Under the pieces are notes generated by a model, which had not been told where the DNA came from, searched no databases, and saw only the letters and a list, made by a program, of their open reading frames with translations. The translations under genes were made by a program, and so were the position numbers. DNA of 59,219 bases, taken from positions 1 to 59,219 of the IMG/VR virus record IMGVR_UViG_3300050011_000072; one strand, written 5' to 3'. Source of the stretch: a virus. Lineage: Duplodnaviria > Caudoviricetes. Position 1 is the stretch's first letter, and every line of letters begins with the position of its first letter. Of the stretch, positions 13,313 through 55,178 are shown one piece after another.

Positions 13313-13551
13313 GCGATTTAAAAAATGGCGGCCATGCCTTCCCGACCGTGTATCAGCATAATGCGATGACAGAAGACGGCATGACAATGCGCAACTATCT
13401 GGCTGCGAAAGCAATGCAAAGCCTGATAGCAGTGTGCTTCGACCATCGCGCTTCTGTTGCGAGAACAGACGGCGGCGCGGTCACTGAAACTACTATCGCA
13501 TCGCAGGCGTACGCGTTTGCTGATGCTATGATCGAGGCCGGGAAATCATGA
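13309..13551 (+). CDS. Conserved small phage early protein
   Basis: GGHAFP...GMTMRNYLAAKAMQ...AYAFADAMI, a widespread phage family motif. Confidence 0.8.
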   Translation: MSDLKNGGHAFPTVYQHNAMTEDGMTMRNYLAAKAMQSLIAVCFDHRASVARTDGGAVTETTIASQAYAFADAMIEAGKS

Positions 13552-13757
13552 TCCGCACAATCCTATGGTCAATCATCGGCGCTCTAATTGTCTGCGCAAC
13601 CTACGCCATCGTGCAGACGCTTGACGATCAGCGCACGGATGATATGCAAGCGGCGAAGGCTTTGGCGCACCGCAAGGCGGTCAGGTTGCGTGAGGCTGGC
13701 CTTATCCATGACGCAAATCAAATGGTATGGCCTTGCTGCCAGATGGTGGAAAAATGA
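13548..13757 (+). CDS. Hypothetical protein with N-terminal TM helix
   Basis: Coupled ORF with hydrophobic N-terminus. Confidence 0.6.
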   Translation: MIRTILWSIIGALIVCATYAIVQTLDDQRTDDMQAAKALAHRKAVRLREAGLIHDANQMVWPCCQMVEK

Positions 13758-18378: not shown

Positions 18379-18923
18379 AAACTGAAGCTAAAATTATTCT
18401 TGAGACATCGCCTGATGCCGCAAGCATTAAGACGGTGACCGGGTGGGTGGCAAGCAATGGCCGATTCTGGGGCGATGATGAACGCATGGCACGATACGAT
18501 GGCAGCACGCATCGGACTTGCGAGTGCGGCGAGCTAGTTGAGCAACGCAGCTATTGCCATGCATGCCGCAGAGCGAAGGAGCTTGCCAAGTTCGCCGCCA
18601 TGGAGCGCAGGCCGTGGGATGGTGTGAGCATGATCTATTCCTACGCGCTAGATAGGTATTTTCGGGATACCAATGACGTGATTGATTTTTGCCATGATGA
18701 GGAAGTCACCCCGGCAGACTTGCGCTTGATTTTGTGCGAGCCGACGTTCGCACGGGAAATAGATGAAAGCGAACATTTTAGCGATGATCTACCGGAAGAT
18801 GGCGACGTTCCGGCCGATCTGGTCGATGCGTTTGAGGCGCTCAATAAAGTGATACGTGAGTGCAAAACGCCGTTATCATGGTTTCCCGGTAAATTCGCGC
18901 TTGATCTGGATGGCATTGAATAA
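18375..18923 (+). CDS. Conserved phage hypothetical protein with Zn-ribbon
   Basis: GWVASNGRFWGDDERMARYDGSTHRTCECG...CHAC. Confidence 0.75.
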   Translation: MKTEAKIILETSPDAASIKTVTGWVASNGRFWGDDERMARYDGSTHRTCECGELVEQRSYCHACRRAKELAKFAAMERRPWDGVSMIYSYALDRYFRDTNDVIDFCHDEEVTPADLRLILCEPTFAREIDESEHFSDDLPEDGDVPADLVDAFEALNKVIRECKTPLSWFPGKFALDLDGIE

Positions 18924-19007
18924 TCAATCCGGCGCATCTTTCCGTTTCTGCCGATAGTCTATCTTGCCGGTCCAGAACTGAATCCAGAAGTTGAGGAACA
19001 TCATCAT
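18924..19007 (-). CDS. 27-aa aromatic/cationic peptide, last gene of the lysis cassette (not in ORF track)
   Basis: MMMFLNFWIQFWTGKIDYRQKRKDAPD; ATG overlaps the lipase stop; its stop abuts the convergent gene's stop. Confidence 0.45.
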   Translation of the reverse strand: MMMFLNFWIQFWTGKIDYRQKRKDAPD

Positions 19008-19657
19008 ATTTTCCCCAATTGCGTATCGCGCCACTTCATCAATCCCGGCATGACCGCAGCAAGCATGTGGTCGTCGAACGGGTCAATCCCTGGCGCCTGA
19101 TTATTCAGTTCGATCATGGTTTCTCGAATGTGCCGCCAAAGCAGAATATGCAGCGGCACGTCGACCACAGGGTCGCGCGCGTTGCTGAAGCTGTAGATCG
19201 TTTTGATTATCGAATTGACCAGATCGGCGTAGCCTTGATATCCTGGACGGGGCGTTTCGAGCATCACAAGCATGTCCACCGGCAAGCCTGCTTTGGCCGC
19301 CATGACTGCCATCAATGATGCATGGGGAGATCCGAGCGAGTGGCCGACGAATGCCGCGCCTTGCGGTATTTTCGGCTTAAGCCATGCCCACGCATCCTGA
19401 TATCCTTCTGTAAAGCCGAAGTGCATCGTAACGCCTAGCTCAGGCATGTAGAATGGTATCGCCGTGACGTCGTCAATGAAATCCCGTGCGTCGTTACTGC
19501 CGGCACAAGCGACGATAGGACGGCCCCATTCAGTAATTCCAAGGCCGAGATTGAAGGTGTCGGACGAATAGTAATCGGTGAATGAAACCGATTTAGCGTC
19601 GTAGGCTTGGGTGGCGAATAGCCCAAGTTGCCATACTTTTTCGGCTTCAGGTATCAT
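19004..19657 (-). CDS. Class-3 lipase-like alpha/beta hydrolase
   Basis: VACAGS, HFGF, nucleophile elbow FVGHSLG, ETPRPG, NARDPVVDVP, WRH, DHM. Confidence 0.9.
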   Translation of the reverse strand: MIPEAEKVWQLGLFATQAYDAKSVSFTDYYSSDTFNLGLGITEWGRPIVACAGSNDARDFIDDVTAIPFYMPELGVTMHFGFTEGYQDAWAWLKPKIPQGAAFVGHSLGSPHASLMAVMAAKAGLPVDMLVMLETPRPGYQGYADLVNSIIKTIYSFSNARDPVVDVPLHILLWRHIRETMIELNNQAPGIDPFDDHMLAAVMPGLMKWRDTQLGKI

Positions 19658-20067
19658 TTTGCCGACGCAGGCAAGACGTTCGGAATAATGCTTGCTGCGG
19701 CGGCGCCGGAAATGGCTGGAATTGGCAAATTTACCGCTCCTACGCCCGTGGTGGTGGTCGGCGCCGAACCGCCCAAGTTCGGCGTCTTAATCTGCGCCCC
19801 CTGAATCATCGTCATGGCATTCGTTGTCGCGCTTGACTTGACACACATCTTTTCAATGCCCTGCTGATACTGGACCGGCGATTGTACGATGTCATACCAC
19901 GGTGTCATGCAGAGCGCGAAAACCTTGGCGTTCAGGACATTCTGACCGGCGGCAATCTGATTCGTTGCGATGTTTGACTCGTACCCGGCTATAGCAGTAT
20001 TGGCTACCGTACCGCAGCCGGTCAGCGCGGCGCAGGCCAATAGTACATAAATTAGTGTGCGTTTCAA
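19654..20067 (-). CDS. Lipoprotein
   Basis: MKRTLIYVLLACAALTGC lipobox; TTG start with AGGAG RBS; two further Cys. Confidence 0.8.
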   Translation of the reverse strand: MKRTLIYVLLACAALTGCGTVANTAIAGYESNIATNQIAAGQNVLNAKVFALCMTPWYDIVQSPVQYQQGIEKMCVKSSATTNAMTMIQGAQIKTPNLGGSAPTTTTGVGAVNLPIPAISGAAAASIIPNVLPASAK

Positions 20068-20076
20068 GTGTTGCTC

Positions 20077-20316
20077 CTATTTGTGATGTACTTCAAATTG
20101 ATCGCCGCAATGCTCGCGGTCCACATGCGATTCACACCAATTTCGGTGTTCATCGGTTCGCAATGGCGGTTCATCGGCATCCAGCACGATAGCCCCGACG
20201 ATTGCCGCGCCTTCAGCGATCGCGCCCAGGTCGTCAAGCGTAGCTTGTTCGCCAGGAGTCATGTTTGCGCAGCCGGTGAGCATCCATATTGCCGACGCCA
20301 GGAAAATGGTTTTCAC
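20077..20316 (-). CDS. Small lipoprotein
   Basis: GTG start with GGGAG RBS; MKTIFLASAIWMLTGC lipobox; two C-terminal Cys. Confidence 0.7.
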   Translation of the reverse strand: MKTIFLASAIWMLTGCANMTPGEQATLDDLGAIAEGAAIVGAIVLDADEPPLRTDEHRNWCESHVDREHCGDQFEVHHK

Positions 20317-20483
20317 TGTGGACTCCCTAACATATTGACAGACAGGCCGGTGAGGGCCATTTTGAGCAGCGTTTTGATCTCTGCGCCCCCGTCCGCTGCT
20401 TTTGGTGGGAAGTATTCGAGCAGCATCCATGCGACGAGCATGAGCAGCGCCGCGGCGAGTTTGGCAATGAGTATCGGATTCAT
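20313..20483 (-). CDS. 56-aa membrane protein, holin candidate (not in ORF track)
   Basis: MNPILIAKLAAALLMLVAWMLLEYFPPKAADGGAEIKTLLKMALTGLSVNMLGSPQ; ATGA and GTGA overlaps. Confidence 0.65.
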   Translation of the reverse strand: MNPILIAKLAAALLMLVAWMLLEYFPPKAADGGAEIKTLLKMALTGLSVNMLGSPQ

Positions 20484-21826
20484 GCCAATACCCCGACTGC
20501 GTGATCTTGCATATAGGCCAAATCCTTCGCGCCGGCGCCGGCCACAATCGACGTCTGTAGCCAGCTATTCATCCATGCGACGAAAATGGATAGACCAGGT
20601 GCCGCAGGGATGCGCCCGAAGTAGGTTTGAAACACCCAAGTCACTACCTGCGCGAGCGTTGATACTTCGGTCGGCGGCGTGTAGGCGGTTGATGGCGCCC
20701 ACCCCGGCGCGGCCATGAATGCCAAGTCGCCAGCGCCAGCACTCGATACGATTTGCGCTTTCACGGCGGCAATCACAGCGTTGGCGAAAAGTGTTTGACC
20801 GCCTGGATTCGGCATACGGCCGAAATTATCGACAAACACGTATTGCACGGCTTGGTCAACCGTGCTTGCGCTTGTCGGCGGCGATAGATGTGTGGTCAAG
20901 TCAGGGCCAAGTGGACCGTTGATCACTACGCCGTTGTTCGTTACTTGCGTGACGACAAATGCAGCCGTGCAATCGCTGATAATGGCAATTGAAGCCCAAA
21001 AGAACCCTTGCTCACCCCACGCGGCGCCCCATGAATTTTGAATCTTGAAGCAGGGCGTTGCGTTGCCAGTGATCGGGTCGGTGACAGTTTCGTATCCGAC
21101 GATTCGCACACTGTGGCCGCCGATCTGGCTACCTGGATTTTGCGAACTTCCCATCGGATAATAAATCTGGCCGGCCTTCATGGTTTCAATCTGTTCGCCG
21201 ACAAGGAAATCAGCGTTGACCGCATAACCTTTGGCGAGCGCGTACATCAACCAGAATTGTTGCACCTCGTAAGTTTGCCACGAGATGAACGTCATCGGAT
21301 ATTTGGCCGGCGGCACAGGATAGTAACAACTTGTCAAAATTTTCTCAAACCCGGTAATCGTGGTATTCAGCGCCGCCGTGTATGCGGCAGTAGGCGGCAC
21401 GGCTTCGGTCAGCGTTGCATCGGTGCTAGGCCATAGCGATTCAGGGCATGAGCCGAAATATCCGGCCGCCAGCAATGCCGCCTCGGTCGTGCTGCCGGTA
21501 TCTGTCGTTGGAGGCGCCCCAAACAGGATTGTGCGCGAATTGTAATAATTGAAAAATGCCGACTGTACAGAGAAGTCAGGGCCATCGGTGCCAGGCGTCG
21601 CTTGCGCTTCCATGCCGAGGTATGCTTCGATGTTCTCGGTCAGGTCTTCCGCTGTACACATTCCGACGGTAAATTGATTTGAGATCGGCACATAGTCCAA
21701 TGTGCTTAGATCGACCGATGCCGGCAACTGTGCCGTGTAGTCAATTTTGAATATCGGATAGGTGCCGCCGCATACCGGCAATGGTTGTGTCAGTTTCGGC
21801 GGATTGAGTGCTAGATTGAATTTCAT
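20480..21826 (-). CDS. Papain-like (peptidase C1) cysteine protease with two C-terminal DUF4214-like repeats
   Basis: LPASVDL, NQFTVGMC, GGHSVRIVGY, IQNSWGAAWGEQGF; repeats VFVDNFGRMPNPGG and VFQTYFGRIPAAPGL. Confidence 0.88.
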   Translation of the reverse strand: MKFNLALNPPKLTQPLPVCGGTYPIFKIDYTAQLPASVDLSTLDYVPISNQFTVGMCTAEDLTENIEAYLGMEAQATPGTDGPDFSVQSAFFNYYNSRTILFGAPPTTDTGSTTEAALLAAGYFGSCPESLWPSTDATLTEAVPPTAAYTAALNTTITGFEKILTSCYYPVPPAKYPMTFISWQTYEVQQFWLMYALAKGYAVNADFLVGEQIETMKAGQIYYPMGSSQNPGSQIGGHSVRIVGYETVTDPITGNATPCFKIQNSWGAAWGEQGFFWASIAIISDCTAAFVVTQVTNNGVVINGPLGPDLTTHLSPPTSASTVDQAVQYVFVDNFGRMPNPGGQTLFANAVIAAVKAQIVSSAGAGDLAFMAAPGWAPSTAYTPPTEVSTLAQVVTWVFQTYFGRIPAAPGLSIFVAWMNSWLQTSIVAGAGAKDLAYMQDHAVGVLA

Positions 21827-22308
21827 GCTAAAGAACCCCCTGCTGTTGTGTAAGCGGCCTGCAGCATCGCCAGCGTATTCTCATGCTGCTGGTAGTTGTT
21901 GCCAGGGAGCGATGCCCACCGACTGCTGCACTTTTGGATTGCCGATGCAAGATTGCCAGCGTTGATGTCAGTAATCGCGCCGCACTCATGGAGTAGCTGC
22001 ACGGCTATCCTATCCTGGCTTTCAGGGCCGAAGTCTGGAAGGTGCAAAACTTCGATGTAGGCGACGGCGTATTTATGGAGGATCTGATACCGGCCGGCCG
22101 CCGTACTGTTGCACTGCCGATTTAAGACGTTTGGCGGCACGGAATAATCAGTAAAAAGTATCGGATGCCCCGCAGTGCTTCCGACCAGCACGTTATAGCC
22201 ATCGTCGGATACGGCAAGCAGCGCCGCCCCAATTTCAGATACGGCGATCATATCGAGGAATGCCGCTATATTGGCGCTCCCGAGTTGCGCCGCTGTTGAT
22301 CGCGTCAT
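21823..22308 (-). CDS. Endolysin, lambda R-like transglycosylase
   Basis: AFLDMIAVSE, DDGYNVLVG, STAAGRYQIL, LPDFGPESQD, WASLPG. Confidence 0.93.
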   Translation of the reverse strand: MTRSTAAQLGSANIAAFLDMIAVSEIGAALLAVSDDGYNVLVGSTAGHPILFTDYSVPPNVLNRQCNSTAAGRYQILHKYAVAYIEVLHLPDFGPESQDRIAVQLLHECGAITDINAGNLASAIQKCSSRWASLPGNNYQQHENTLAMLQAAYTTAGGSLA

Positions 22309-22622
22309 AAATGCGCCCAATGTCCAGTAGTCCATCCAATGCCGAGCATGGCAAGCATCTTCAGCAATTCAAACAGGGTGCTGCCGATGAACCCGCTTTG
22401 TTGCGCGATGTGAGCATCGAACTTGGTCCACAACATTTCGAGGCTCTTTTTCTCCGTCATGGAGTCTTGCTCAAGCAGGGAAATGCGCTGATTGCTTTCG
22501 ACTAGCTTTTGATACGATAGCGTTAAACTTCTCTGATCGTCAACCATTTGACCGAACGCCTTTTCAAAAGACTGAAACCGCTCATCGAGCCGCGCAAATG
22601 CAATTTCTATTGGTTCTGGCAT
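22305..22622 (-). CDS. Holin/antiholin-like protein (coiled coil plus C-terminal TM)
   Basis: Immediately upstream of and overlapping the endolysin; hydrophobic C-terminus. Confidence 0.6.
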   Translation of the reverse strand: MPEPIEIAFARLDERFQSFEKAFGQMVDDQRSLTLSYQKLVESNQRISLLEQDSMTEKKSLEMLWTKFDAHIAQQSGFIGSTLFELLKMLAMLGIGWTTGHWAHL

Positions 22623-22760: not shown

Positions 22761-22785
22761 AATAAAAACCCGCCGTAGCGGGATG
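22761..22785 (-). terminator. Intrinsic terminator
   Basis: CCCGC-TACG-GCGGG followed by TTTTTATT on the minus strand. Confidence 0.7.
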
Positions 22786-24661: not shown

Positions 24662-25630
24662 TTAAAACTCCACAATTACGATACCTGGCCCACCATTGCC
24701 GCCGCCTGTAGTGCTACCCGTGATAGCCCCGCCGCCGCCGCCGCCGATACCTCCAGCTGCGGCAGCATACCCTGTTGCCCCGCTGCCGCCGCCGCCGCCG
24801 CCATTGCCTCCAGGCCCACTTCCAGCTGAACCAGCGCCGCCGCCGCCGCCATTGCCGCCTGCTTGTCCCACGCCGATGGAGGATATACCGCCGCCGCCGC
24901 CCGTGAAACTGTCAAAAGGGAATCGCAAGCTTGCGTTTATCGCATTGTCCGTGCCGCCGGTAGTGACGGCCTGTACTCCAGTTATGTCTGGGCCAGCCCC
25001 CGGCCAAGATAGACCGAATGCCGACCCGCCGCCGCTGCCGCCGGCACCACCGCCGACGCCGCCGCCGCCGCCATTGCCACTTACACTGCCAGTTCCATTG
25101 CCGCCATTACCTAGTTGCGAACCAGCGCCGCCGCCGCCGCCAAGTGCCCCACCTCCTCCGCCAGTGCCACCTGTTGCGTGGAAACTCCCGCCAGCACCAG
25201 CGCCCCCAGCGCCACCTGCGCTTGTCGTGCTAACTGAGCCGCCAGTCGCAGATAGATAACTCCCGAAAGACGCCGTACCACCGGACGCCCCACGTGCAGT
25301 TTGACCGGGAACCGTAACTGTGACAACGGTTCCTGCGCTCAAGGGGAAGACCCCTAACGCAAAGCCGCCGCCGCCGCCGCCGCCGCACGCTAATGCTGCA
25401 AGCCCCGAACCGCCCGCCCCGACCACGCGCACCCTTACTCCTGCCGCCGTAACCCACGCCGGTACAGTAAAGGTGCCGCTAGTTGCGAATACTTGGTATC
25501 GTCCTGACCCGAAAATACCTAAGAACCCCGCGCCGACTGTTTGCGACACCGTTATGCCGTTATTGAGCGTAGCTGCAACAAGTGTATTTGTCCCTGTAGG
25601 GTAGGGAAACCCGAATGTTCCGCGTTGCAT
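24662..25630 (-). CDS. Glycine-rich tail fibre protein
   Basis: FATSGTFTVP, VVGAGGSG, GGGGGG runs, ends GGPGIVIVEF. Confidence 0.8.
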   Translation of the reverse strand: MQRGTFGFPYPTGTNTLVAATLNNGITVSQTVGAGFLGIFGSGRYQVFATSGTFTVPAWVTAAGVRVRVVGAGGSGLAALACGGGGGGGFALGVFPLSAGTVVTVTVPGQTARGASGGTASFGSYLSATGGSVSTTSAGGAGGAGAGGSFHATGGTGGGGGALGGGGGAGSQLGNGGNGTGSVSGNGGGGGVGGGAGGSGGGSAFGLSWPGAGPDITGVQAVTTGGTDNAINASLRFPFDSFTGGGGGISSIGVGQAGGNGGGGGAGSAGSGPGGNGGGGGGSGATGYAAAAGGIGGGGGGAITGSTTGGGNGGPGIVIVEF

Positions 25631-54430: not shown

Positions 54431-54939
54431 AACTACCGCCAGTACCGAATGAATGTGATCGCTCGCCGCAAGCTGGGCCAGCGTATTTTGACTACTCGGA
54501 TATGGATGCCTATGGTCTGCTATGTTACAACGCAGCTATAGCGGAACCATGCCCGTATTGCTTTGCGAATGACAATAAGGTATTTGAGTTGCGCAAGGCG
54601 TTCGAGGCTCTGCGCGACTTGCTGCTTGAGGCTGAATCAGCCGACACAGAAAACGACCAACGGGCGCAACAAGCAGAGGACAAGACAACGATGCTGGCGG
54701 ACAGGGTTGAGTGCCTGCTTAAACAAACCTCACTCGATAGCCACAGAATCGCGGCATGGAAAGAGTGCGCAGAACATCAATACGGCCTGCTTCGCCTTCA
54801 GCGTGGTTTCGACGATTCCGACTACCCGATTGAAGGCGCATTGGATTTATGGGCAGAGGGCAGGCACCCATGCTTAAAACAGCCAGACGATACCGATTAC
54901 ACCCCGAACGATAACTCAACATGGGCACCACGATCATGA
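54427..54939 (+). CDS. Hypothetical protein
   Basis: 170 aa, coupled. Confidence 0.6.
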   Translation: MKLPPVPNECDRSPQAGPAYFDYSDMDAYGLLCYNAAIAEPCPYCFANDNKVFELRKAFEALRDLLLEAESADTENDQRAQQAEDKTTMLADRVECLLKQTSLDSHRIAAWKECAEHQYGLLRLQRGFDDSDYPIEGALDLWAEGRHPCLKQPDDTDYTPNDNSTWAPRS

Positions 54940-55178
54940 AGAAAATATTTACGCAAATTATTAGAGGGTGCGGCGACCTACCTTATGTAGGCGAGCACCC
55001 CGGCACCCCGGTCATGATCCTGGTGATACTTGCCGGAGGTGGCGCAGGAATCAAAGGAGGTATGTCTGGGTTCTTGGCAGGCATAGCCTTTATAACCGTT
55101 TTCATTTTGCCGATTTATCTATACGGCGCATGGGATAGGGCTGAATTGTCTGATGCGCTTACCAAGGAAAACAAATGA
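54936..55178 (+). CDS. Two-TM membrane protein
   Basis: Hydrophobic segments VMILVILAGG and FLAGIAFITVFILPIYLYG. Confidence 0.65.
   Translation: MKKIFTQIIRGCGDLPYVGEHPGTPVMILVILAGGGAGIKGGMSGFLAGIAFITVFILPIYLYGAWDRAELSDALTKENK

Follow-up and report, generated by a model that had tools for sequence, protein, structure and literature searches.

In mycobacteriophages, the esterase LysB is thought to attack the outer lipid layer of the host after holin and endolysin have acted, and it is functionally the closest described parallel to the locus reported here. LysB belongs to a cutinase-like alpha/beta-hydrolase family, its substrate is the mycolyl-arabinogalactan ester, and it has no partner lipoprotein. 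For phages of Gram-negative hosts, spanins and disruptin are described classes of outer-membrane disruptor. According to a 2018 spanin survey, 91 of 677 phage genomes are spanin-less, among them P-SSM2 and Thalassomonas phage BA3, and 31 of the 91 have an orphan lipoprotein gene and no i-spanin (inner-membrane spanin) (PMC6139136). How spanin-less phages breach the outer membrane is acknowledged there as an open question, and the survey's section on these phages does not mention lipases (PMC6139136). Here we analyze IMG/VR virus record IMGVR_UViG_3300050011_000072 (Duplodnaviria; Caudoviricetes), a genome of 59,219 bases that is rated 100% complete and was taken whole (hereafter, the window). 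On its minus strand, from 22622 to 18924, lies a lysis cassette of eight open reading frames (ORFs): a holin-like gene (g1), an endolysin (g2), a papain-family peptidase (g3), a small membrane protein (g4), two lipoproteins (g5 or lpp1, g6 or lpp2), a class-3 lipase (g7) and a short terminal ORF (g8). A lipase coupled to a lipoprotein in the position of a spanin is a concrete candidate for the outer-membrane step, testable by complementation of lambda Rz/Rz1.

A lipase that recurs beside lysis genes

The lipase gene g7 (19657-19004, minus strand) encodes a minimal class-3 lipase/esterase of 217 residues, with a Ser-Asp-His triad and no signal peptide. It matches Pfam PF01764 (Lipase_3) with an expect value (E) of 1.8e-9 and 38.1 bits against a cut-off of 22, and phrog_21992 (esterase/lipase) with E = 9.5e-16, and the profile of its family matches fungal class-3 lipases in the PDB with E = 2e-25. 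Across 32 sequences, G105-H-S107-L-G109, D162 and H197 are invariant, and by analogy with known class-3 lipases we take S107, D162 and H197 to be the triad. The AlphaFold model has a predicted local distance difference test (pLDDT) score of 94.6, and Foldseek matched it, with probability 1.00, to fungal class-3 lipases, feruloyl esterase A and plant phospholipase A1 at template modelling (TM) scores of 0.6-0.73. Judged by sequence and predicted structure, g7 is a class-3 lipase/esterase of the alpha/beta-hydrolase fold with intact catalytic residues. The family comprises 543 cluster representatives at E <= 1e-3, most of them about 200-220 residues long; in a viral fold search with g7, the only 'Esterase' entries to come up were two from Arthrobacter phages (E about 0.008-0.045, TM below 0.31).

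The surroundings of the lipase were examined in 64 viral loci (handles beginning with L), drawn from IMG/VR by a scan with a single peptide pattern around the active-site serine. Peptidoglycan hydrolases were sought in all frames of these loci by jackhmmer from nine seeds, namely the window endolysin and eight lipase neighbors, and the families of the eight non-lambda seeds were checked with Pfam. A hydrolase was present in 40 of the 64 loci; in 38 it lay within 2.5 kb of the lipase and on its strand (37/60 once four apparent duplicate pairs were collapsed), and in 33 of those 38 it was upstream. The hydrolases fall into eight families: Phage_lysozyme (10), GH19 (8), Glucosaminidase (5), lambda-R type (4), GH108 (3), Amidase_2 (3), Hydrolase_2 (3) and M15_4 (2). 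Pfam and PHROG tallies of 120 upstream neighbors agree with this association. Because it adjoins endolysins of eight unrelated families, the lipase is, by association, a recurrent lysis-cassette gene.

What stands directly before the lipase varies. An ORF with a lipobox ends between -260 and +60 nucleotides of the estimated lipase start in 20 of the 64 loci, a count that may include a few spurious cases and that misses the lipoprotein of L011, which the pattern did not catch; between -2.5 and +1.5 kb of the lipase the figure is 24/64. Other loci have a signal-less, Ala-rich gene of about 100 residues in the lipoprotein position. Of 61 loci, 24 have a small protein with an N-terminal membrane segment in the 1.3 kb before the lipase; for a control interval 3.0-4.3 kb upstream the figure is 7 of 56. 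Four further near-complete viral genomes, picked for the lipoprotein-lipase pair, all carry it, and one of them (G005) has no other credible lipobox ORF.

The sequence-only reading had proposed that the eight genes form a co-conserved system, a layer-by-layer enzymatic exit that attacks peptidoglycan, lipid and a protein coat. The lipase and its upstream (lipo)protein do recur; g3, lpp1 and g8 were not found in the fetched lipase loci. In the suggested neighborhood check for peptidase plus lipase beside endolysins, the lipase stood close to a peptidoglycan hydrolase in 38 of 64 loci, and the peptidase was present in 0/64. By tblastn, g3 was missing from all 64 viral lipase loci and also from L148-L152, and it has one close homologue; a co-conserved, layered scheme of eight genes is not supported, and nothing was found in support of a protein coat as the target of the peptidase. 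From these comparisons, what is conserved appears to be the lipase together with the (lipo)protein encoded before it, whereas g3, lpp1 and g8 look like local additions.

In several loci (L036, L008, L047, L058, L059) a GH19-type hydrolase ends about 130-490 nucleotides from the lipase match, and in L036 the ORF that holds the lipase (L036:5967-7376) is 469 residues long. Fusions of endolysin and lipase, or very tight pairs, are possible.

Among cultured phages, tblastn with the window lipase found no match in 50,697 phage records. A more central family member, from L007, was needed as query to detect the lipase in three Ralstonia phages (Raharianne, Albius and Hyacinthe) and in cyanophages, of which P-SSM2 carries a relative. 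Raharianne shares the layout of the window, its gene order being gp53 (several transmembrane segments), gp54 (endolysin), gp55 (HNH), gp56 (63 residues, one N-terminal membrane segment), gp57 (a lipoprotein with a lipobox and a terminal Lys) and gp58 (esterase/lipase), followed by convergent genes that include a RecE-like exonuclease 43% identical to that of the window. None of the 75 annotated features of Raharianne is a spanin, and gp57 is the only lipobox ORF in all frames of its genome. In the Raharianne genome paper the words lipase, esterase, spanin and endolysin do not occur (PMC7940629). In addition to the class-3 lipase, Raharianne has a GDSL-type esterase/lipase, gp51 (L067:1613-2419), on the opposite strand beside tail genes. 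The minimal form of the arrangement is seen in L148, a contig of a Burkholderiaceae metagenome-assembled genome (MAG), where a small membrane protein, a glucosaminidase, a 91-residue lipoprotein and a lipase 58% identical to g7 are encoded.

Lipoproteins, the small membrane protein and the spanin question

The gene directly upstream of the lipase, g6 (lpp2; 20067-19654, minus strand), encodes 137 residues from a TTG start with AGGAG upstream, and has an LTGC lipobox with Gly at +2; its Pro/Ala-rich tail is variable and ends in Lys, and its stop overlaps the lipase start. In two homologues, P0160 (88%) and P0161 (87%), the core is kept and the hydrophobic tail is not. More distant relatives are encoded immediately before the lipase in L148 (pairwise E = 2e-5), L013, L037 and L021 (alignment A6), and no close relatives of lpp2 were found in viral contigs. 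The preceding gene, g5 (lpp1; 20316-20077, minus strand), encodes 79 residues from a GTG start with AGGGAG upstream; its LTGC lipobox has Ala at +2, a short hydrophobic stretch lies in its center, and its tail is acidic and rich in His and Cys. Pfam LPAM_1 gave E = 0.045 for lpp1, under the family cut-off. No tblastn match to lpp1 was found in the fetched loci and no NCBIfam or PHROG family fits it, the large protein databases having been outside this search. In both lipoproteins the lipobox follows a hydrophobic signal stretch; each has two Cys besides the lipidated one, and neither has Asp at +2.

At least two groups can be told apart among the lipoproteins encoded before the lipase, one with lpp2, P0160, P0161 and the proteins of L148, L013, L021 and L056 (alignment A6), the other with Raharianne gp57 and the proteins of L003, L011, L015 and L055. 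Since the second group has no BLASTP similarity to lpp2, the common feature is position and type of protein rather than demonstrated common descent. A complex prediction from the lipase alignment (A5) and the alignment of mature lpp2 (A6) gave a score of 0.00 with the partner fold uncertain, and so gave no answer either way.

Many of these lipoproteins end in Lys, frequently as Pro/Ala-x-Ala-Lys (lpp2, P0160, P0161, L148, L011, L003 and gp57; coordinates L148:4711-4986, L003:5465-5986, L011:4070-4489 and, for gp57, L067:4444-4899). A terminal Lys is present in 9 of the 20 lipobox ORFs that adjoin the lipase, a raw fraction among sequences of which some are related. The Lpp protein of E. coli is attached to peptidoglycan via its C-terminal Lys. 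By analogy, the Lys could mean that the lipoprotein is fixed to peptidoglycan like Braun's lipoprotein and released by the endolysin, which would time the attack of the lipase.

In the small inner-membrane protein g4 (20483-20313, minus strand; 56 residues), residues 4-22 form a strong membrane segment near the N-terminus (Kyte-Doolittle 2.52), and a second stretch is amphipathic. About 30 residues follow the membrane segment, with no predicted coiled coil and no Cys. Small proteins with an N-terminal membrane segment stand in the position of g4 in Raharianne (gp56), L011, L020, L056, L003 and L033, a likeness of architecture only. In three loci, a small membrane protein and a lipoprotein share one frame (L007:4908-5528, L009:5366-5959 and L017:5339-5983), by fusion or with an internal start. 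If the two are fused there, this would argue that membrane protein and lipoprotein act together.

No canonical spanin is encoded in the genome. A six-frame lipobox scan of the 59-kb genome gave g5 and g6 as the only plausible ORFs, and a membrane scan of the whole genome found no ORF with an N-terminal segment and a long helical periplasmic domain. For g1, g4, g5 and g6, no PHROG spanin appeared at E <= 0.1 and there was no NCBIfam match. The absence of an Rz/Rz1-like pair, noticed in the sequence-only reading, is thus upheld by lipobox, membrane-protein and family searches of the cassette and the genome, and in the family and topology checks neither lipoprotein proved to be an ordinary spanin. 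On the inner-membrane side, g4 is the sole cassette protein with an N-terminal segment and is too short, and the anchor of g1 is C-terminal and without a signal. On the outer-membrane side, lpp1 starts on the g4 stop (GTGA) and lpp2 comes next, both with a lipobox and without Asp at +2. Because there is no valid i-spanin, a g4-lipoprotein pair does not qualify as a spanin of the Rz/Rz1 type. In the cassette neighborhoods of the other loci, a PHROG scan of 84 neighbors gave no spanin among the best 25 of 60 families.

Single-protein candidates were considered as well. As a u-spanin (unimolecular spanin), lpp2 was rejected: its C-terminal stretch has a Kyte-Doolittle value of 1.5, contains four Pro and is missing in P0160 and P0161. 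The hydrophobic stretch of lpp1, some 13 residues past the lipidated Cys, is probably too close to it to span the periplasm. The two periplasmic Cys of each lipoprotein speak against both as u-spanins, given that periplasmic Cys are present in 0/58 of the known u-spanins for which the survey gives this count (PMC6139136). Two plus-strand ORFs elsewhere deserve mention. One, at 54921-55178, encodes 85 residues with two hydrophobic segments and a charged C-terminus; it is holin-like, lies 32 kb from the cassette and has no PHROG. The other, at 13548-13757 in the early block, encodes 69 residues, in which a membrane segment at the N-terminus is followed by a helical tail that carries charges; it likewise has no PHROG, and as an i-spanin it was judged too short and too distant by the usual criteria.

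A proposed mechanism and its alternatives

The cassette can be read as a sequence of conditional steps. The tail-anchored g1 would permeabilize the inner membrane, as holin or as holin partner. Endolysin, lipase and peptidase are all without signal peptides and would reach the periplasm via the holin lesions; those of the lambda S holin let large proteins through non-specifically. The endolysin would then cut the peptidoglycan, and the lipase, working on the inner face of the outer membrane, would hydrolyze acyl esters there, with phospholipids, lipoprotein anchors and lipid A as candidate targets. The lipoprotein lpp2, the gene of which is translationally coupled to that of the lipase, possibly positions the enzyme at the outer membrane, and the lipase would destabilize this membrane, either replacing or joining a spanin-like bridge of g4 and lipoprotein. 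Peptidase, lpp1 and g8 would be lineage-specific extras, of which the peptidase may cleave proteins of the envelope by which the outer membrane is tethered or stabilized. On what the sequences offer, we rate the chances as even that disruption of the outer membrane is carried out, or materially helped, by the lipoprotein-lipase module, often together with a small membrane protein. We put forward more tentatively, at somewhat below even chances, the wider proposal that the lipase and upstream lipoprotein, often with a small inner-membrane protein, are a third, enzymatic class of outer-membrane disruptor besides spanins and disruptin, widespread in uncultured phages, present in cultured Ralstonia phages, and explaining part of the spanin-less phages.

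Several findings weigh against a role of the module in outer-membrane disruption. The sample of 64 loci is biased by its single active-site-serine pattern, and even so 26 of the loci have no hydrolase within 2.5 kb and 44 have no lipobox ORF abutting the lipase. The excess of small membrane proteins upstream must partly be holins and may simply reflect them. There is no BLASTP similarity between g4 and the small membrane protein of L020, nor between lpp2 and Raharianne gp57, and a single lipoprotein family is not demonstrable. The top fold match of g7 is a feruloyl esterase, so that g7 need not act on membrane lipids, and since the fold family includes feruloyl esterase the substrate of g7 cannot be read from the fold. 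Neither g3, lpp1 nor g8 was found with the lipase in any fetched locus. As for spanins in other loci, the best 25 of 60 PHROG families cover the neighbors scanned, so that one spanin could be hidden, and close to the lipase L061 and L048 encode helical-tailed membrane proteins that are possibly i-spanin-like. The near-complete genomes G002-G004 have one more lipobox ORF elsewhere, away from the lysis genes.

The main alternative is an atypical, size-inverted spanin with a tiny inner-membrane subunit and a large lipoprotein, in which g4 and lpp1 or lpp2 would bridge the periplasm and fuse or disrupt the membranes in the manner of Rz/Rz1, with lipase and peptidase as mere helpers that might, for instance, clear debris. 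According to the survey, an endolysin followed by a small type-II-like membrane protein and a lipoprotein is the 'separated' spanin layout, most two-component spanins have periplasmic Cys, as do lpp1 and lpp2, and non-standard topologies fall outside the survey's own criteria (PMC6139136). The same order is seen in Raharianne gp56/gp57, L011 and L056, and L007, L009 and L017 hold membrane protein and lipoprotein in one frame. We nevertheless consider such a spanin unlikely, as the roughly 30 residues of g4 beyond its segment offer neither coiled coil nor Cys, L148 has lipoprotein and lipase with no small protein between endolysin and lipoprotein, and no spanin family in PHROGs or NCBIfam is matched; a spanin would also leave the attachment of a lipase in many lineages unexplained. 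A different possibility is that the genes downstream of the endolysin are non-lysis cargo at the end of the late operon, either superinfection-exclusion lipoproteins or enzymes that would modify the host envelope or destroy receptors on debris and so save progeny from being lost. Phage lipoproteins with exclusion roles are known, and the lipase fold family includes non-lipid esterases. In addition, mobile HNH genes populate the cassette region, which therefore tolerates insertions, and g3, with its one close homologue, lpp1 and g8 were found beside no other lipase gene in the fetched loci. Set against this are the overlaps of start and stop codons that chain g2, g3, g4 and g5 together and, in a second chain, g6, g7 and g8, and the lipase beside endolysins of eight unrelated families (38/64) in the same order (33/38), a pattern hard to obtain by chance accretion; moreover, no alternative outer-membrane disruptor was seen in the window or in Raharianne. 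We therefore regard a cargo role as decidedly unlikely.

The lipoprotein could also act in the periplasm as an inhibitor of the lipase or as its immunity partner, restraining the enzyme until lysis or shielding neighboring lysogens, rather than recruiting it. The Tli proteins are such immunity partners of type VI lipase effectors, and the translational coupling of the two genes (ATGA), their pairing in 20 of 64 loci, and a lipoprotein that varies fast beside a conserved lipase, as in effector-immunity pairs, would all fit. However, in many loci the lipoprotein position is empty or taken by an Ala-rich gene that encodes no lipoprotein, and the lipase, being without a signal peptide, should not encounter a lipoprotein of the periplasm until the holin has acted, by which time inhibiting it would be of little use; we give this explanation very little credence. 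If instead the lipoprotein-lipase module does act in outer-membrane disruption, it would be a new class of lysis protein, would improve the annotation of 'hypothetical' genes in lysis cassettes, and would supply small outer-membrane-active enzymes to combine with endolysins against Gram-negative bacteria.

Other genes of the cassette

The first gene, g1 (22622-22305, minus strand), encodes 105 residues, with a domain resembling a coiled coil in the N-terminal part and, towards the C-terminus, a membrane anchor that is only moderately hydrophobic (19-residue Kyte-Doolittle maximum 1.53, residues 77-95). Three homologues with 56-67% identity, one of them from a Burkholderiaceae MAG, share the N-terminal domain, and their tails are more hydrophobic than that of g1. 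In Pfam and PHROGs no family was found for g1 at E <= 0.01, and neither single-sequence nor profile search found close relatives in viral contigs. In a protein atlas, viral look-alikes stand at 0.93 and XhlA and DUF7365 clusters at 0.91-0.92, which are leads only. Compared with what is usual for holins, g1 adjoins and overlaps the endolysin gene, has one weak C-terminal membrane segment, and lacks a charged tail and a family; judged by eye, a similar architecture is found directly upstream of the endolysins in L037, L026, L020, L066 and L003. Given its position, its overlap with the endolysin, the similar proteins upstream of other endolysins and the XhlA-like atlas lead, g1 is a probable holin or holin-associated lysis protein of XhlA-like architecture. 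It was also considered as an inverted (N-out) i-spanin, which was judged unlikely, as the N-terminal domain has no signal and carries nine Lys/Arg; this judgment follows the positive-inside rule.

The endolysin g2 (22335-21823, minus strand; 170 residues, soluble) is, by sequence, a member of the lambda R (lytic transglycosylase) type. Its residues 24-169 align to residues 9-153 of PDB 1am7/3d3d (E about 1.5e-26), it matches phrog_90 (endolysin) with E = 2.3e-45, and we place the catalytic Glu of lambda lysozyme in the aligned ...SE... motif. No signal or signal-arrest-release (SAR) domain is evident in g2, and a SAR-endolysin was rejected: the hydrophobic stretch at residues 22-42 holds the ...SE... 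motif and charges, and aligns to the core of lambda lysozyme. With g2 as tblastn query, 633 phage records were matched, the best being Burkholderia phage BcepC6B (55.8%), which has an ordinary cassette of two holins, endolysin and Rz/Rz1.

The largest gene, g3 (21826-20480, minus strand), encodes a papain-family (C1) peptidase of 448 residues, slightly extended at the N-terminus and carrying two repeats in its C-terminal part. It matches Pfam PF00112 (Peptidase_C1) with E = 6.4e-9 and 36.6 bits against a cut-off of 20.7, and a profile search found PDB 3ois ('Cysteine protease') at E = 2.4e-24. In a three-sequence alignment of g3 and two homologues (A4), Q51, C57, H238, N264 and W266 are invariant; we equate Q51, C57, H238 and N264 with the catalytic residues of papain. 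The sequence thus identifies g3 as a C1 peptidase with its catalytic residues intact. The model from the three-row alignment has a mean pLDDT of 37.9, too low to be of use.

Close homologues of g3 are rare. A search of 5.8 billion clustered proteins gave P0002 alone (53% identity, on a 3.5-kb contig), the second homologue being a distant bacterial enzyme. No close relatives were found in viral contigs; one match, at 26% identity, came from an uncultured jumbo phage record, and a metagenome scan with the g3 profile returned generic C1 peptidases only (25-31% identity). We regard g3 as a rare, lineage-specific addition to the cassette, and a papain-family peptidase in a lysis cassette is a separate rarity in itself. 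The C-terminal repeats (20480-20830, minus strand; residues about 330-448) are some 50 residues each, share an aromatic-x-x-F-G-R-x-P motif, are kept in P0002 and are modelled as helical with pLDDT 55-77. The motif has some likeness to DUF4214, a family for which Pfam gave no match at E <= 0.1. The nearest homologues of the cassette proteins are P0002 for g3, P0160 and P0161 for lpp2, and P0163-P0165.

The last ORF, g8 (19007-18924, minus strand), would encode 27 residues. Its start overlaps the lipase stop (ATGA), with GGGGA upstream, and the N-terminal half of the peptide is hydrophobic and aromatic, the C-terminal half basic; we treat it as a putative gene. A 36-residue version with a GTG start gave weak PHROG matches only (best E = 0.004). 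For g8 there was no NCBIfam family and no tblastn match in the fetched loci, in a search that did not extend to the large protein databases, and no counterpart was seen downstream of the lipase in L003 or L148. The gene calls of g4, g5 and g8 are based solely on ORF structure and ribosome-binding-like sequences.

Genome, setting and host

PHROG matches on the minus strand include a large terminase, a major head protein, a tail sheath, a tape measure and a baseplate wedge protein, and from these head, tail sheath, tape measure and baseplate genes the phage is recognized as a myovirus. A DnaB-like helicase and a methyltransferase/primase are also encoded, and no tRNA gene was found in the 59,219-base genome. 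The cassette closes the 3' end of the structural block, past genes related to tail fibers and two HNH endonuclease genes (23769-23302 and 23223-22804, minus strand). A plus-strand early block, with the RecE-like exonuclease, converges on it and ends at 18923. All eight ORFs were found on the minus strand where the sequence-only reading had placed them, and when the junctions were re-examined its description of tight coupling was borne out: g1 and g2 overlap by 31 nucleotides, ATGA overlaps join g2/g3, g3/g4, g6/g7 and g7/g8, a GTGA overlap joins g4/g5, and a gap of 9 nucleotides, with AGGAG ahead of g6, separates g5 from g6. The claim that this is a lysis cassette likewise agrees with its place at the end of the late operon, after tail-fiber and two HNH genes and convergent with the RecE-like early genes; it is a genuine lysis cassette ending that operon. 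A nucleotide search with the whole cassette found no match in the 50,697 phage records.

Between the HNH gene and g1, a consensus scan found a terminator-like GC hairpin with a T-run (22769..22782, minus strand), which may set the cassette off as a separate unit of transcription. The scan gave five such sites in all, against 6.5 expected from shuffles, so that this one taken alone is not significant.

HNH genes lie within or beside several lysis cassettes: two in the window, one in the gap between endolysin and gp56 of Raharianne (L067:3641-4210) and one in L003 (L003:4012-4761). In 8 of the 64 viral loci a relative of the window's second HNH gene precedes the lipase by 1-2.5 kb, and relatives are also present in L149 and L151. 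Beside the tail-fiber genes, 24662-25630 (minus strand) encodes a glycine-rich protein of 322 residues of the tail fiber assembly family phrog_863; its antisense frame is very Pro-rich and is a source of false lipobox matches.

Among species-representative genomes, the nearest relatives of the lipase are on contigs of Burkholderiaceae and Oxalobacteraceae MAGs. In total, 12 genome contigs carry a lipase relative, and they are assigned to Burkholderiaceae, Oxalobacteraceae, other Pseudomonadota, Opitutia, Bacteroidota, Nitrospiraceae and Myxococcales. The hosts of the named phages with the lipase are Ralstonia, Prochlorococcus and Cylindrospermopsis, and all hosts seen for the lipase family are diderm. 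Because relatives of the lipase and a homologue of g1 are on Burkholderiaceae or Oxalobacteraceae MAGs, the window phage most probably infects a Gram-negative bacterium of the order Burkholderiales.

Comparison with known lysis systems

Like mycobacteriophage LysB, g7 is a predicted serine esterase of a lysis cassette, encoded beside a peptidoglycan hydrolase and without a signal peptide. Unlike LysB, g7 belongs to Lipase_3, has a candidate lipoprotein partner and would act in ordinary diderm Proteobacteria. With the spanins of lambda (Rz/Rz1) and T1 (gp11), the module shares its position 3' of the endolysin, an outer-membrane lipoprotein, periplasmic Cys and a preceding small inner-membrane protein; it differs in having no coiled-coil i-spanin, no conserved C-terminal membrane segment in lpp2, no family match, and an attached enzyme. 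For g1, the nearest known architecture is that of XhlA of PBSX-type prophages of Bacillus, which is encoded just before the lysis enzymes and also has an N-terminal helical domain and a C-terminal anchor. This likeness (atlas cosine 0.91) is a lead only: the family is named on 22% of the members of the atlas cluster, g1 has no HMM (hidden Markov model) match to PF10779 at E <= 0.1, and the host type differs.

Disruptin, gp28 of phage phiKT, is a precedent for outer-membrane disruption by a non-spanin in a spanin-less phage; in the description of gp28 given there, it is a cationic peptide that acts without an enzyme (10.1101/515445), to which g8, with one hydrophobic and one basic half, may be compared. 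The cassette of phage WO is a further parallel, as a hypothesized lipolytic lysis module in a diderm host, with a phospholipase beside a small holin-like protein (PMC9203015). Its enzyme, in the parts of that article which set out the hypothesis, is a patatin-like phospholipase A2, accompanied by neither endolysin nor lipoprotein, and its role is hypothesized only; Wolbachia is reported there to have no detectable peptidoglycan (PMC9203015).

In the full-text literature, subscription journals and supplementary tables aside, we found no class-3 lipase described in a lysis cassette of a phage with a Gram-negative host, and passages that mention lipase in PMC5411513, PMC7504290 and PMC8951688 proved to have no bearing on it; the spanin tables of PMC6139136, which lay outside this literature search, might list some of the phages that carry the lipase. 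A lipolytic step in lysis is itself of a known kind, and what appears new at this locus is a lipolytic third lysis step in ordinary diderm hosts, coupled to a lipoprotein.

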